Of a DNA stretch of 48,072 bases, positions 14,611 to 41,350 are shown piece by piece. Within the stretch, counting starts at the first letter, position 1. Each line of letters opens with the position of its first letter. The notes below the pieces were generated by a model. That model searched no databases and was not told the DNA's origin. It saw only the letters and a program-made list of their open reading frames with translations. The position numbers and the translations under genes are program-made. The stretch lies in the sequence record DRR378314_231, one strand, 5' to 3'.

Positions 14611-15486
14611 ATGAAACGCACACTGATCGTTCCCGCAACCATCGCCCTATTAACCGGTATGGCCGCTACGGCGCAGGAAACTAACGAATCCGCCGCAGAA
14701 ATTAACACCTCGGCCGCAATCGAGGCAGAGGTAGACGTAAACACTGATGAAAGGTCTGTTGAAGAGCTGAACGCGCTTCAGCTGGATGTTCTTGAATCAT
14801 CTGACACGACCGAGGCCAGCGAAGAGCAGATATTCACCGCGCAGGCAGACACCGACACGATGACGGCCGGTGCTGATCGCAAACATCCGACCGGCGACAC
14901 CAAGTCCCATGAATGGGACAAGGCCGACATGGACAAGCAGGTCACCGCAGAGGCTGATCTGGAAGCCGATACAGAAATGGGTATGGGCGGACCTGATTAC
15001 GCGTCTGAAACCGACGCGATGACCGATACCGCGATGCAGGGCACTATCGCCCAGCTTGCCTCTGAAGACGCCCGCTTCACGACCCTCGTTGCACTGGTTG
15101 AACAGGCCGGCCTGAATGAAAAACTGGACGCCGATGGCGAATACACTGTCTTCGCGCCGACGAATGCCGCCTTTGAAAAGCTGGACCCTGAACTGGTCAC
15201 CAAGCTGAAATCCGGTGAGGCCAACGACACGCTGAAATCAATTCTGAAGACGCATGTCGTCGAGGGTGAAACCATGAGCAGCGCGCTGGTCGAAGGCGAC
15301 AACACAGTCGCCACGATGGCAGACGCAGACTTGATTGTCCGCAAGACAGGCGACAGCGTTACAATTGGCAATGCGACGGTCGTCGCTGCTGACATCGACG
15401 CATCAAATGGTGTGATCCACGCAGTCGATACGGTCATCATTCCAGCTGATCTGGAGCTGACCGACGAAGAAGAGACAGAGTCATAA
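14611..15486 (+). CDS. Secreted fasciclin (FAS1) domain protein with a long acidic N-terminal extension
   Basis: Signal peptide; FTTLVALV..AGL, YTVFAPTNAAF, ILKTHVVEG and DIDASNGVIHAVDTVIIP motifs; SD AAAGGAG. Confidence 0.92.
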   Translation: MKRTLIVPATIALLTGMAATAQETNESAAEINTSAAIEAEVDVNTDERSVEELNALQLDVLESSDTTEASEEQIFTAQADTDTMTAGADRKHPTGDTKSHEWDKADMDKQVTAEADLEADTEMGMGGPDYASETDAMTDTAMQGTIAQLASEDARFTTLVALVEQAGLNEKLDADGEYTVFAPTNAAFEKLDPELVTKLKSGEANDTLKSILKTHVVEGETMSSALVEGDNTVATMADADLIVRKTGDSVTIGNATVVAADIDASNGVIHAVDTVIIPADLELTDEEETES

Positions 15487-15516
15487 GGCTCCTCCCCTTC
15501 TGGCCATTGTGCCAAG

Positions 15517-15558
15517 GAAAAAGCCCCGGCAGATCGCTCTGCCGGGGCTTCTTTCTTG
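15517..15558. terminator. Bidirectional intrinsic terminator (fasciclin / amtB)
   Basis: Perfect 13-bp stem AAGCCCCGGCAGA/TCTGCCGGGGCTT with a 4-nt loop, A-run before and T-rich run after. Confidence 0.9.
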
Positions 15559-15572
15559 GGAGGTTACGCAGT

Positions 15573-20788: not shown

Positions 20789-21448
20789 ATGTTGAATATC
20801 CTGGCAAGCCTTGGAGCGATCACCGCAATCGCAACGTCGCCGCTCCCACTCAGCCTGCAGGCCACTGAGGCCGCAGCGCCAGCACCGCAAGTTTCCGAAC
20901 CGGCCGGCTTGAGCGAGGCTGATCGTCAGCGCCTTCTGAACCGAGCATCTACGGCCTTGGCCAAGGTTAAGACAGCCAGCGGCACGTTTGAGCAATTGTC
21001 ACCGGACTATAGCGAATCCACTGGCCGATTTGCGTTGTCGCGCCCCGGTAAGGTTCGGTTTGAATATGATGACCCAAGCCCCCTGCTCGTCGTGAGCGAT
21101 GGCACAACCGTCGGTCTTCAGGATTCCGAGCTGGAAACCACTGATCGGGTTCCCCTCGGAACCACACCGCTCGCCTTGCTGCTGGATGATGACATCGATT
21201 TCGCCACAGAGGCGGATGTGTTGGACGTAACCAACCGAAATGGCCGGGTGGAAATCACCCTGCGCGACAAGTCTGGCGAAATGGATGGCACGCTGACTCT
21301 CGTCATGCAAGAAAGCGATATGAGCCTGACCGGATGGCACACGCTGGACAGCGGTGGAAACCTGACACAGGTCCAGCTGACCGATGTTTCTTACGGTCAG
21401 CGCCTCAATCCGCGCCTGTTTGTTCTGAAGGATTTCGATAAGAACTGA
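20789..21448 (+). CDS. lolA: Outer-membrane lipoprotein carrier protein LolA family
   Basis: Signal peptide; GTFEQ...GRFALSRPGKVRFEYD.PSPLLVVSDG, PLGTTPL.LLL; SD AAGGAG. Confidence 0.88.
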   Translation: MLNILASLGAITAIATSPLPLSLQATEAAAPAPQVSEPAGLSEADRQRLLNRASTALAKVKTASGTFEQLSPDYSESTGRFALSRPGKVRFEYDDPSPLLVVSDGTTVGLQDSELETTDRVPLGTTPLALLLDDDIDFATEADVLDVTNRNGRVEITLRDKSGEMDGTLTLVMQESDMSLTGWHTLDSGGNLTQVQLTDVSYGQRLNPRLFVLKDFDKN

Positions 21449-21472
21449 CGTGTTTGCACCACACCCAAGGAC

Positions 21473-21488
21473 ATAACACATTATTAAC
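21473..21488 (+). promoter_or_regulatory. CtrA-box-like site (ATAA-N7-TTAAC)
   Basis: ATAA cacatta TTAAC, an 8/9 match to TTAA-N7-TTAAC, in an AT-rich promoter-like stretch (TTGCAC at 21454). Confidence 0.55.
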
Positions 21489-21489
21489 T

Positions 21490-21670
21490 TGATTTTTTTC
21501 TGTGGAGTGACATCTTTGCAACTGTCGATGACGAAGCAAATCGAGCGCAGCAACTGACCCCCCGCTGCAATCCTTGTGTCATCCACCGTCGGAGCCTTCC
21601 CCTCCCGACGAGACGTGTAAAGCAAGCGTCTGGCGCGCCCGAACTTCCCCGCGTTCGGGCGCGTTGACGT
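21490..21670 (+). ncRNA. Candidate small RNA with tandem hairpins bearing C-rich loops
   Basis: Hairpins at 21547-21568, 21587-21610 (loop CCTTCCC) and 21634-21663 (11-bp stem, loop TTCCCCGC) in the 249-nt lolA-xth gap; boundaries are approximate. Confidence 0.45.
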
Positions 21671-21697
21671 TTCAGGAAACACTGCTACGCAGCCTGA

Positions 21698-22501
21698 ATG
21701 TCTAATTCTCTCAAAATCGTCAGCTGGAACATCAACTCTGTTCGCCTGCGTGCGCCAAACGTCGCCGCCTTCGTGGAGGAGGAGCAACCGGATGTTGTTT
21801 GTCTGCAGGAAACAAAGTGCCAGGACGGCGAATTTCCCGAAAAGGCCTTCAAGGAAATGGGGTTGCCGCATCTCGTGCTGAACGGCCAGAAGGGCGGGCA
21901 TCATGGCGTGGCCATCGCCTCGCGTCTGCCCATCGAGCGCATCGAGGCACCAGACCTGTGCCGCCACGGACATTCGCGCGTGATCGCGGCGAAAGTGGCC
22001 GGCGTGGAAGTCCACAACATCTACTTGCCAGCTGGCGGCGATGAGCCGGATCCCGAGGTGAATGACAAGTTTGCCCACAAACTCGATTTTCTGGAGCGAC
22101 TGGGACCTGCCTACAAGAAGCAGTCAAAGACGCCGCGCGTCTTGGTGGGCGATCTGAACGTTGCGCCGCACGAAAATGATGTCTGGTCACACAAGCAGTT
22201 GCTGAAGATCGTATCCCACACGCCGGGAGAAACCGAACGACTGGAAGATTCGCGCAATCAGGCCGCGTTCGCCGACATTGCTCGCCTGGCGGTAGGGGAC
22301 CACCAGAAACTCTATTCCTGGTGGAGCTATCGCGCGAAGGACTGGGCCAAGAGCAATCGCGGACGCCGGCTCGACCATATTTGGATGAACCCCGCAGCAC
22401 TGCCCGATACGAAGATCGATACCTTCAAGATCCACCTCGCATGGCGTGGAGGCTGGAAACCTTCGGACCACGCGCCAATAAGCGTCGAAATGAAGGTTTA
22501 A
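21698..22501 (+). CDS. xth: Exodeoxyribonuclease III
   Basis: SWNINSVRLR, DVVCLQETK, GDLNVAP, YSWWSYR, GRRLDHIW and PSDHAP motifs. Confidence 0.95.
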   Translation: MSNSLKIVSWNINSVRLRAPNVAAFVEEEQPDVVCLQETKCQDGEFPEKAFKEMGLPHLVLNGQKGGHHGVAIASRLPIERIEAPDLCRHGHSRVIAAKVAGVEVHNIYLPAGGDEPDPEVNDKFAHKLDFLERLGPAYKKQSKTPRVLVGDLNVAPHENDVWSHKQLLKIVSHTPGETERLEDSRNQAAFADIARLAVGDHQKLYSWWSYRAKDWAKSNRGRRLDHIWMNPAALPDTKIDTFKIHLAWRGGWKPSDHAPISVEMKV

Positions 22502-24462: not shown

Positions 24463-25086
24463 ATGGTGCAGAAACCCCAATCCGATGCGAGACGCAAGCT
24501 GATCTCTGCGGCGCGATGCGCTGGTCATCATTTGCCTTCATGGTTGCCACCTGCCCTGTTTCTCACCGATCCGAAGCGCACACCGGACCCGATCTCAGTG
24601 GCGGAAAACCTTCCTGCCGGGTGGGGAATTGTTTATCGGCACTTCGGTGCAAAGCATCGGTTGTGGCAGGCGCGGCAGTTGGCGGAGATTGCGAACCGGC
24701 GGGGACTGGCCTTGCTGATCGCGGCAGACCCCGTCCTTGCCATAAAGGTCGGTGCAGCAGGCGTGCACTGGCCCTTCGCGCAAAGGTACGCTGCCCGGAA
24801 ATGGCGAGCTCGGTTCGACCTGATGAGTGTCAGCGCGCACGGTGGCGACGAATTGCGACAGGTGGAACCGGATGTGTTTGATGCGGCACTCGTTTCCGCA
24901 GTCTTTCCGTCGACCAGCCCATCAGCCGGCACGCCGATCGGTTCGCATCAGATTCGCATTCTCTCGCGACAAAGCGATATGCCGGTCTATGCGCTGGGGG
25001 GCATAAATTCACGTAATGCGGCCTGCGTCAGTAGCTCAGCGGGTCTTGCGGCGATTGAGGGTATTCAGGACGCGTTTGGGCCCTAG
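24463..25086 (+). CDS. Thiamine-phosphate synthase/TenI-like TIM-barrel protein
   Basis: IVYRH, GAAGVHWP, SAH, LVSAVFPSTS, PVYALGGI and GLAAI motifs; start approximate. Confidence 0.75.
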   Translation: MVQKPQSDARRKLISAARCAGHHLPSWLPPALFLTDPKRTPDPISVAENLPAGWGIVYRHFGAKHRLWQARQLAEIANRRGLALLIAADPVLAIKVGAAGVHWPFAQRYAARKWRARFDLMSVSAHGGDELRQVEPDVFDAALVSAVFPSTSPSAGTPIGSHQIRILSRQSDMPVYALGGINSRNAACVSSSAGLAAIEGIQDAFGP

Positions 25087-25535
25087 AACTTGAACGCAGA
25101 CTTCAGCCGGATACCGGCTTCGACTTCGCGGGATTCCCACGTTGAGGTGTCATTCAGCTCGTCTGCGCCAACACTGACCTCACCCCCGACCGAAAAGCGC
25201 GGCGTGATGCGGAATGTCGCGCCAGCCTGCATTTCCTCGCGTGGCAGGGGAGACAAATCTGTGCGGGACACCTTGTCCAGATTCAGTTGCCAGCGCGTAT
25301 TGCTGCCAAACTGCATCGAGAATTCGCGATCTGGCTTTGCCTGCCATACCGGTTCAGCGCTGGCGGGTTTGGACTGCGCAAATTGGCGGTACCATTCAGA
25401 CTGCGCGGCAGAGGTCTCTGAAATGCTGGGGGCTGCCAATTCCATTTCGGGCGCAGGCACGGAATCTTGCGCAGCAGCTGGCATAGCCAACGCAGCGCAC
25501 AGCGCGATCCCAAAAGTTACCAAGCCCAGCTTCAT
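25083..25535 (-). CDS. ntrZ: Exported protein, NtrZ-like periplasmic regulator
   Basis: Signal peptide; C-terminal RW.L.LD...MQAGATFRITPRFSVGG.V...IRLKSAFKF resembles Caulobacter NtrZ (from memory); located next to the porin and leuS. Confidence 0.6.
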   Translation of the reverse strand: MKLGLVTFGIALCAALAMPAAAQDSVPAPEMELAAPSISETSAAQSEWYRQFAQSKPASAEPVWQAKPDREFSMQFGSNTRWQLNLDKVSRTDLSPLPREEMQAGATFRITPRFSVGGEVSVGADELNDTSTWESREVEAGIRLKSAFKF

Positions 25536-25574
25536 TTCTTGCACCTCTGAACACAGAAATAGTCAGATGGGCGG

Positions 25575-25612
25575 GTAAAGAGAAGATTAAGAATCTGACA
25601 GGGCCGCGATTC
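25575..25612 (-). promoter_or_regulatory. CtrA-box-like site plus two GANTC sites upstream of the ntrZ-like gene
   Basis: Minus strand TTAA tcttctc TTTAC (8/9) at 25575-25590; GAATC at 25591 and GATTC at 25608. Confidence 0.5.
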
Positions 25613-40029: not shown

Positions 40030-41061
40030 CTAACCCTTCCGAATAATTTCCAACACGCGTTCTACATGCGCGATAGGTGTCTCCGGCCGGATGCCATGAC
40101 CAAGATTGAAAATATGCGGCCGACCTTCGTAGGCAGAGATAAGTTCCCGAACGCGGGCGTCGAGTCTCTCACCGCCTTCAATCAGTAAAAGTGGGTCAAG
40201 ATGTCCTTGAACCGGAAAGCCTTCAGGCAAGGCCTTGTTCACGAATGATGGCACTGCTGCCGTATCGAGACCAACCGCAGTCACGCCAGTTGTCTCCACA
40301 TATTCCGGAAGCATCGCCGCGGCGCCGCGCGGAAAGCCGATGATCGGAACATCAATGCCCATCTTGCGAAGACGGGCGACAAGTTTTTGTGTGGGCGCGA
40401 TAATAACTTCCCGGAAGATATTGTCTGGAAGCCCTTCGGCCCAGCTGTCGAACAGCATGAGAGCATCCGCTCCAGCATCTACCTGAGCCGCCAGATAATG
40501 CGCCGTCGCTTCACTGATCCGATCCAGTGCAGCCGCGAGTTCGTTTGGCTTCCCGTGCGCCCAGCGCCAAGCGAGGGATTTATCCGTCTTGCCACGGCCT
40601 TCGATCGCGTACAGCCCGACGGTCCAGGGAGACCCGGCAAACCCGATCAGCGCTGTCCCATCCGGAAGTGAGCTCTTCACTCGCGAAACTGTTTCGTAAA
40701 CTGGCGACAAACGGTCAGCTGCTTGTTGGGGGGGCACTTTGTCCAGATCATTCGCTGACTCGATCTGCTGAACAATTGGGCCAATACCTTTCTCGAACTT
40801 CACGCCGAGACCCATTGTATCAAGGATCAACAGGATGTCTGCGAACAGGATGGCTCCGTCCATACCGTATCGACGTATGGGCTGGAGTGTAGCTTCAGCC
40901 GCCATCGACGGCGTGTAGCAGAAATCGAGGAAATTCTTCGCTCGTGCTCTCAGCTCTAGATATTCTGGCAGGTGGCGTCCCGCTTGCCTCATCATCCATA
41001 CCGGAGGCGTTGGGACCGTCTGTCCCTCAAGTACCTGAATCAGCTTAGGCTTGGCGCTCAT
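40030..41061 (-). CDS. hemE: Uroporphyrinogen decarboxylase
   Basis: PVWMMRQAGR.LPEY, AILFADIL, LIGFAGSPWT, FDSWA and HIFNLGHGI motifs. Confidence 0.97.
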   Translation of the reverse strand: MSAKPKLIQVLEGQTVPTPPVWMMRQAGRHLPEYLELRARAKNFLDFCYTPSMAAEATLQPIRRYGMDGAILFADILLILDTMGLGVKFEKGIGPIVQQIESANDLDKVPPQQAADRLSPVYETVSRVKSSLPDGTALIGFAGSPWTVGLYAIEGRGKTDKSLAWRWAHGKPNELAAALDRISEATAHYLAAQVDAGADALMLFDSWAEGLPDNIFREVIIAPTQKLVARLRKMGIDVPIIGFPRGAAAMLPEYVETTGVTAVGLDTAAVPSFVNKALPEGFPVQGHLDPLLLIEGGERLDARVRELISAYEGRPHIFNLGHGIRPETPIAHVERVLEIIRKG

Positions 41062-41204
41062 GCCTCAGGCCCCTTCCATCCCAAAATCAAAACAAAGCCC
41101 GACAGGGCGCTTATAACTATTAGACCGTGTAATTCGTGGAGAAAGGCCACACACAGGAATTGTCCAGCTAAATCCACAGGCGAGTCACAGGGTGTCGCAC
41201 CCCG

Positions 41205-41220
41205 GTAAGGTTTCGTTAAC
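41205..41220 (+). promoter_or_regulatory. CtrA binding site (8/9)
   Basis: GTAA ggtttcg TTAAC. Confidence 0.7.
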
Positions 41221-41237
41221 TGTCGATGCCACCGTGG

Positions 41238-41253
41238 TTAACGGCAGGTTAAC
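41238..41253 (+). promoter_or_regulatory. CtrA binding site (perfect)
   Basis: TTAA cggcagg TTAAC. Confidence 0.85.
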
Positions 41254-41350
41254 ACCCCCGCTGGAGTCACAGGAGCGAACGAAAGGGGATTCTCGCGGAG
41301 TCGAATTCCTGGCCTGTGACTCGATTGTGAATCCTTTTGGGGAAGATTGG

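Follow-up and report, generated by a model that had tools for sequence, protein, structure and literature searches.

The 249-nt gap between a lolA-like gene and xth (21449-21697) in the 48,072-nt stretch of DNA analysed here (the window) contains a real small-RNA gene, present in single copy, about 150 nt long and predicted to extend from 21523 to about 21672. The anatomy of the gene, its structure, its homology and its single-copy status were established by computation. Its RNA is very probably the Hyphomonas orthologue of RusT (CCNA_R0199), which in Caulobacter crescentus is a 118-nt RNA with four stem-loops whose gene lies on the + strand, flanked by lolA and xth (Vogt et al., 2024; PMC11005374). 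That RNA is Hfq-dependent, with an Hfq footprint on its third stem-loop and a seed at nt 45-57 in its second, and it is repressed by NtrX and induced by dipyridyl (iron starvation) or zinc. Sixteen target transcripts are given, mainly for outer-membrane transporters, with the mRNAs of a TonB-dependent receptor and ompW being repressed, and in the same paper, figures aside, homologues are stated for the Caulobacteraceae only (PMC11005374). The sequence type of the gap was also found in named Hyphomonas species, which suggests that the window belongs to this genus. The nearest genome, G001, has 99% identity to the window across 21000-22100 and was used as a stand-in for the genome of the window. 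The features of the region are as follows.

20789..21448, + strand: lolA-like gene (outer-membrane lipoprotein chaperone), the upstream neighbour; open reading frame matching TIGR00547 at E 1.7e-16 but under its cut-off (the G001 counterpart is above the cut-off for PF03548)
21461..21469, + strand: upstream promoter motif ACA-N2/3-CAAG, aligned by the Caulobacteraceae promoter profile and common to Caulobacteraceae rusT promoters
21473..21488, + strand: imperfect CtrA-like box (TAAC-N6-TTHAC; letters ATAA-N7-TTAAC), polymorphic at 21486
21489..21494, + strand: predicted -35 hexamer of the sRNA promoter, TTGATT, in register with the rusT promoter of C. vibrioides (L064)
21511..21516, + strand: predicted -10 hexamer CATCTT within the conserved GTGACATCTTTGCAAC, from comparison of orthologues
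21523..~21672, + strand: predicted RusT-family sRNA of about 150 nt, its ends placed from register and terminator
21527..21583, + strand: SL1, a basal stem and an apical GCAGC/GCTGC hairpin (21547-21568) with loop AACUGACCCCCC, from predicted fold and orthologues
21528..21557, + strand: 9-codon open reading frame MTKQIERSN, its ATG within the SL1 basal stem; judged incidental
21587..21610, + strand: SL2, the seed hairpin, with loop AGCCUUCCCCUC, from comparison with RusT (nt 45-57 of RusT being AACCUAUCCCCUC)
21611..21631, + strand: SL3, a weak A-rich AGACG/CGTCT stem-loop at the position of the RusT Hfq footprint
21632..21672, + strand: SL4, the terminal hairpin, with a perfect 11-bp stem (21634-21663), C-rich loop UUCCCCGC and a short U run
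21664..21691, + strand: predicted xth promoter TTGACG-N16-TACGCA, its -35 inside the 3' strand of the terminator
21698..22501, + strand: xth (exodeoxyribonuclease III), TIGR00633 above cut-off

The same layout was kept among orthologues, as judged from the 30 best xth loci of a family search of 201 genomes. A TTG-type -35 is followed after 16 nt by CATCTT, and the start lies 6 nt further on. The RNA begins with a long arm, continues with a hairpin whose loop is of the UCCCCUC type and a third stem that is weak, and closes with the terminal hairpin. The earlier note, made from the letters of the window alone, had proposed a stand-alone sRNA with C-rich loops. The GCAGC/GCTGC hairpin (21547-21568), the CGTCGGAG hairpin (21587-21610), the AGACG/CGTCT stem (21611-21631) and the stem at 21634-21663 were all found where it had placed them, as were the short open reading frame and the CtrA-like box; in addition, a basal stem (approximately 21527-21583) was detected beneath the first hairpin. 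The + strand of the gap folds better than all of 200 shuffled sequences (z -3.87), with eight of 200 shuffles folding equally well for the - strand (z -1.88), and the predicted RNA by itself gave a z of -4.56. Among 48 homologues, 95.8% of the cells are paired and compensatory changes occur in 11 of 15 pairs, with SL2 and SL4 covarying, a level reached by none of 500 shuffles (a control inflated by the relatedness of the sequences). The SL1 basal stem also covaries, one pair showing a two-sided change in 9 of 22 sequences. The proposal of a stand-alone sRNA with C-rich loops was borne out. A scan for E. coli-type promoters and terminators found none on the + strand; the terminal hairpin is strong and is followed by only UUU, and the scan made no terminator call. 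The 3' strand of SL3 has an alternative pairing that lengthens the terminator stem. The CGUC at 21627-21630 can pair either upstream within SL3 or downstream within this longer terminator, both partners being conserved in Hyphomonas, and a switch at the Hfq site is possible.

The identification with RusT draws on locus, promoter and seed. The sequence of the C. vibrioides locus L064 agrees by eye with that of RusT in Table S3 of the Caulobacter study. A seed pattern fitting both the window and RusT was found in at least 120 stretches, and among the 80 loci listed, 76 lie between lolA and xth, one is next to xth only at a contig end and three are unrelated; the 76, among the matches listed, include both Caulobacteraceae and Hyphomonas. 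A profile built from Caulobacteraceae only (26 sequences, namely 25 loci located via xth synteny and L064, with L037 excluded for lack of an anchor) matched 21452-21610 at E 9.2e-7, the next best match being at 0.54, and the gap was its sole significant match in the 48-kb window. A profile of the Caulobacteraceae promoter by itself (24 sequences, two of them mis-anchored) gave a single match at E 3.2e-4. With the RNA part of the profile the gap ranked first, but at E 0.22. In the reverse direction, a covariance model of 22 Hyphomonadaceae RNAs scored RusT at 10.7 bits (E 0.48), and it matched the gap at E<1 in 17 of 26 Caulobacteraceae loci and at E<0.02 in five of 26. These results place most of the homology in the promoter, seed hairpin and terminator.

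The window RNA shares with RusT its lolA-xth locus, its + strand orientation, the motifs and spacing of its promoter, four stem-loops (predicted in the case of the window), the terminal hairpin and a GAGAC following SL2. Its SL2 loop keeps 11 of the 13 letters of the RusT seed at nt 45-57 (AGCCU-UCCCCUC against AACCUAUCCCCUC, a region including C53). It differs in its predicted length of about 150 nt compared to 118-119 nt, in a longer SL1 with a conserved C-rich loop that Caulobacter RusT does not have, and in a terminator whose loop is also C-rich, whose U tail is short and which holds the -35 of xth. An hfq gene was present in all three genomes checked, and in G001 an ntrB-ntrC-ntrY-ntrX-like cluster can be read from the open reading frames upstream of hfq. 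The earlier suggestion of a distinct, undescribed family thus gives way to orthology with RusT.

The gene had also been read as cell-cycle-regulated, and an sRNA activated mainly by CtrA through the box just upstream of the -35 is the foremost of the alternatives, although we consider it unlikely. The box is present, as had been claimed; it has one mismatch, and sites as good as this are scarce, with only six positions in the window when both strands are counted. However, its best half depends on the polymorphic base 21486, which is a C in G001 and in the contigs of four out of four RNA runs and breaks the TTAAC half. CtrA activator sites are located near the -35, and a TAAC/TTAC-N6-TTHAC repeat lies at this same place in every one of the 36 promoters located among 42 orthologues, with one (12), two (21) or three mismatches (3) and never as a perfect box. 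The level of RusT is highest in swarmer and predivisional cells, which fits such control, but RusT itself is described with two predicted CtrA half sites and no full site (PMC11005374). In the ChIP tables of PMC7200025, the orthologous promoter of H. neptunium has a GcrA peak (1.9-fold) with its summit 3 nt before the predicted start; its GcrA table has 2,979 rows and covers thousands of promoters, so this peak shows activity of the promoter and not specific control. In the CtrA table (920 rows), the interval 3,684,800-3,685,399 contains neither the start nor the end nor the summit of any peak (PMC7200025). However, the CtrA-like box of H. neptunium is a poor one with three mismatches, and weak CtrA input in the clade of the window may therefore still exist. 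No GANTC site was found in the gap.

Other CtrA-like boxes occur elsewhere in the window. A gap between hemE and a PPDK-regulator gene (41061-41347) has a perfect palindromic box at 41238-41253 and a one-mismatch box at 41205-41220, and the gene order around it resembles the start of the Caulobacter chromosome. By analogy with the hemE origin of Caulobacter, we take this gap to be the probable replication origin. A further one-mismatch box (25575-25590, - strand) lies just upstream of a 153-aa open reading frame (25083-25544).

It is highly improbable that the gap is a cis element only, whether a structured 3' UTR and terminator of lolA or an attenuator before xth. Contigs of the four RNA runs used (of 24) do continue from lolA into the gap, but such contigs cannot give start, end, strand or level; three of them end within the hairpins at 21559, 21602 and 21617 and one crosses the gap, which is uninformative on a discrete transcript. 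In many relatives (L013, L015-L020) a further GC-rich hairpin follows the lolA stop, ahead of the sRNA promoter. The window has none, and transcription from lolA may therefore continue into the sRNA; its last hairpin overlaps the -35 of xth. Both features are as a cis element would have them. Against this stand the conserved promoter of the sRNA, the Caulobacter orthologue as a discrete trans-acting RNA, and the persistence of the RNA where its neighbours have moved away or other genes have been inserted. At loci where lolA and xth have come apart, the RNA follows lolA in three (L223, L224, L248) and precedes xth in six (L218, L222, L232, L233, L235, L251) and is thus tied to neither gene, and in more distant families other genes flank it on either side. 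It should also be noted that the distance from TTGACG to the ATG of xth is 34 nt in 24 of 29 loci and 33 or 35 nt in four, the remaining locus, at 29 nt, being one where an earlier ATG was picked. This fixed spacing indicates that xth has its own promoter, as the earlier note had held, and xth is probably leaderless, its predicted start coinciding with the ATG. A reading of the gap as the 5' UTR of xth was rejected on account of this promoter.

There is very little chance that the RNA also encodes the peptide MTKQIERSN. Its ATG lies 5 nt past the predicted start, where leaderless translation is conceivable, and the frame recurs in two other loci (L002 and L007), but 27 of 42 orthologues lack an ATG in their first 15 nt and 12 have frames unrelated in sequence or length; the 9-codon frame is kept in three of 42, its ATG is held within the basal stem, and the proposed dual function was not upheld. 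Membership of the cuckoo (alpha-r14/CcsR) family, which the several adjoining modular hairpins with C-rich, anti-Shine-Dalgarno-like loops bring to mind, is refuted by the loop sequences when set against the definition of the family. Every hairpin loop of cuckoo RNAs reads CCUCCUCCC, and these RNAs often occur in several copies (PMC4615179), whereas here the motif is in no loop, as the earlier note had pointed out, the three loops differ from each other, the gene is single-copy and its homology leads to RusT. The search against Rfam that had been suggested gave no match in the window at the gathering score, with three chance matches at E 2-8 in the gap region. Another likeness is to the Caulobacter RNAs R0014, R0143 and R0157, which we presume to be of the alpha-r8/SuhB/Sis type. 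A UUUCCUCCC stretch is present in these RNAs (Table S3, PMC11005374). The sRNAs of this Hfq-bound type share with the window RNA a C/U-rich stretch, and Hfq binding would be expected for the latter, but their stretch is single-stranded between hairpins, the RNAs are about 80 nt long and the gap has no Rfam match. That the hairpins belong to a dispersed repeat or arose by chance, GC-rich hairpins being common in the genome, is refuted by covariation and by single copy, since G001 has one strong match to the sRNA (the next at E 0.07) and each of 37 same-genus genomes has one.

Overall, the gap is probably the gene of a trans-acting sRNA orthologous to RusT, and its function in Hyphomonas is inferred by analogy. 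A housekeeping-sigma promoter behind lolA would drive an RNA of about 150 nt and four stem-loops ending at the last hairpin, and Hfq would bind the A-rich SL3 and the 3' end of the RNA. The C-rich loops (SL2 as in RusT, and probably SL1 and SL4) would pair with the G-rich ribosome-binding regions of mRNAs and repress several of them, and a base-pairing repressor is the likely nature of the RNA. As in RusT, NtrX may hold the promoter off until iron shortage or metal stress releases it, possibly acting at the ACA-N2/3-CAAG motif (21461..21469), which is a candidate regulator site, and the targets may be outer-membrane transporters; the chances that the NtrX/iron input and the transporter targets are the same as those of RusT appear about even. 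The transcript, Hfq, NtrX and the targets have been demonstrated in Caulobacter only. In a duplex test, the loops paired no better with the start regions of 28 TonB-receptor genes than with those of 39 control genes (p 0.40-0.52). The test was a crude one, with automatic start codons and accessibility ignored, and compared 28 of the 38 TonB-receptor genes of G001 (30 taken, two without a start codon) with 39 open reading frames of the window. No evident common site was seen by eye in the ompW leaders of five genomes. The SL2 and SL4 loops had their best short match in the ribosome-binding region GAGGGGAGG of a TonB-receptor gene (L352, G001:C1:94054-97377), which is a candidate target.

At E<=0.05, a model extending from the seed to the terminator had matches in 115 of 150 genomes of the order, with all six families represented, a tally which takes in weak matches with unchecked positions; in the Caulobacteraceae it matched 30 of 30, including the unpublished G235. 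Outside the order, 24 genomes were matched at E<0.001 in a search of 150 genomes of the class. Of the 22 such matches with a lolA position, 17 were on the same strand and 0.1-6.2 kb downstream of lolA, in 17 families, or 15 of 20 without the two training genomes. The RusT family thus covers the whole order and at least 17 further alphaproteobacterial families, a range which is new here, the literature searched (subscription journals aside) having no report of it beyond the Caulobacteraceae. Twenty homologous loci from other families had no match in Rfam. Inspection by eye of 28 loci from other orders showed no RNA after lolA in most of them, and the first model found the RNA in none of 36 genomes of genus g4. 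In three loci of this genus (L236, L238, L240) lolA and xth are apart, two being without the RNA before xth and one having a shortened form. The second-best match of the family model in the window, at 15482-15562 (18 bits, E 0.026), resembles an ordinary terminator hairpin between convergent genes. At L332 (G505:C1:3834526-3835769), four tandem short units with a AUCCCCUCC hairpin and terminator scored weakly with the family model; the locus is not adjacent to lolA and has no match in Rfam.

The C-rich loops differ between lineages. The first arm contains a run of at least four C in 27 of 28 homologues from outside the Caulobacteraceae compared to one of 19 from within, and by eye this run, often UUGCCCCCCCGC, was seen in about ten of 28 distant loci; the conserved C-rich SL1 loop outside the Caulobacteraceae is new here. 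Among 42 Hyphomonas RNAs (the window and 41 genomes), 20 have an intact SL2 seed, in ten it is worn and in 12 replaced, with the C run being kept in 41 of 42 in the SL1 loop and likewise in the terminator loop. The RNA of the window keeps all three C-rich loops. In a lolA tree of 50 rows (midpoint-rooted, with some long branches, L242 being excluded as too short), two separate losses of the SL2 seed are forced by well-supported branches. The RusT-type SL2 seed was thus lost at least twice with the other C-rich loops retained, which is also new here. In genus g2 (L226, L228, L231) the SL2 seed is lost and long CCCUCCCCUCCC-type loops are found in the first and last hairpins, and three loci of family f6 are also without the SL2 seed, their first loop remaining C-rich.

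Read most simply, the ancestral RNA would have had several C-rich loops, trimmed in different ways by different lineages. It could further be that an old and widespread alphaproteobacterial sRNA family is tied to lolA and that RusT represents its trimmed form in Caulobacter, the ancestor having had two or three C-rich loops acting as interchangeable seeds. The Caulobacteraceae would have lost the SL1 loop and use SL2, and a Hyphomonas clade (including the type of H. neptunium with ChIP data) and a second genus would have lost the SL2 seed independently of each other, SL1 and SL4 being retained. We regard this joint reading as evenly balanced between being right and wrong.

Through its identity with RusT the element acquires a name and a function open to testing, and the published core biology, an Hfq sRNA at lolA-xth, limits the surprise of the finding. 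It also extends RusT, which was published for the Caulobacteraceae only and has no match to an Rfam model, to the order as a whole and to many other alphaproteobacterial families. If the seeds are interchangeable, the main seed outside Caulobacter would be a loop beyond the reach of the RusT study. Lineages that have lost different C-rich loops form a natural series for seed change under constant locus, promoter and fold, and H. neptunium, for which ChIP data and mutants exist, carries a version without the SL2 seed.
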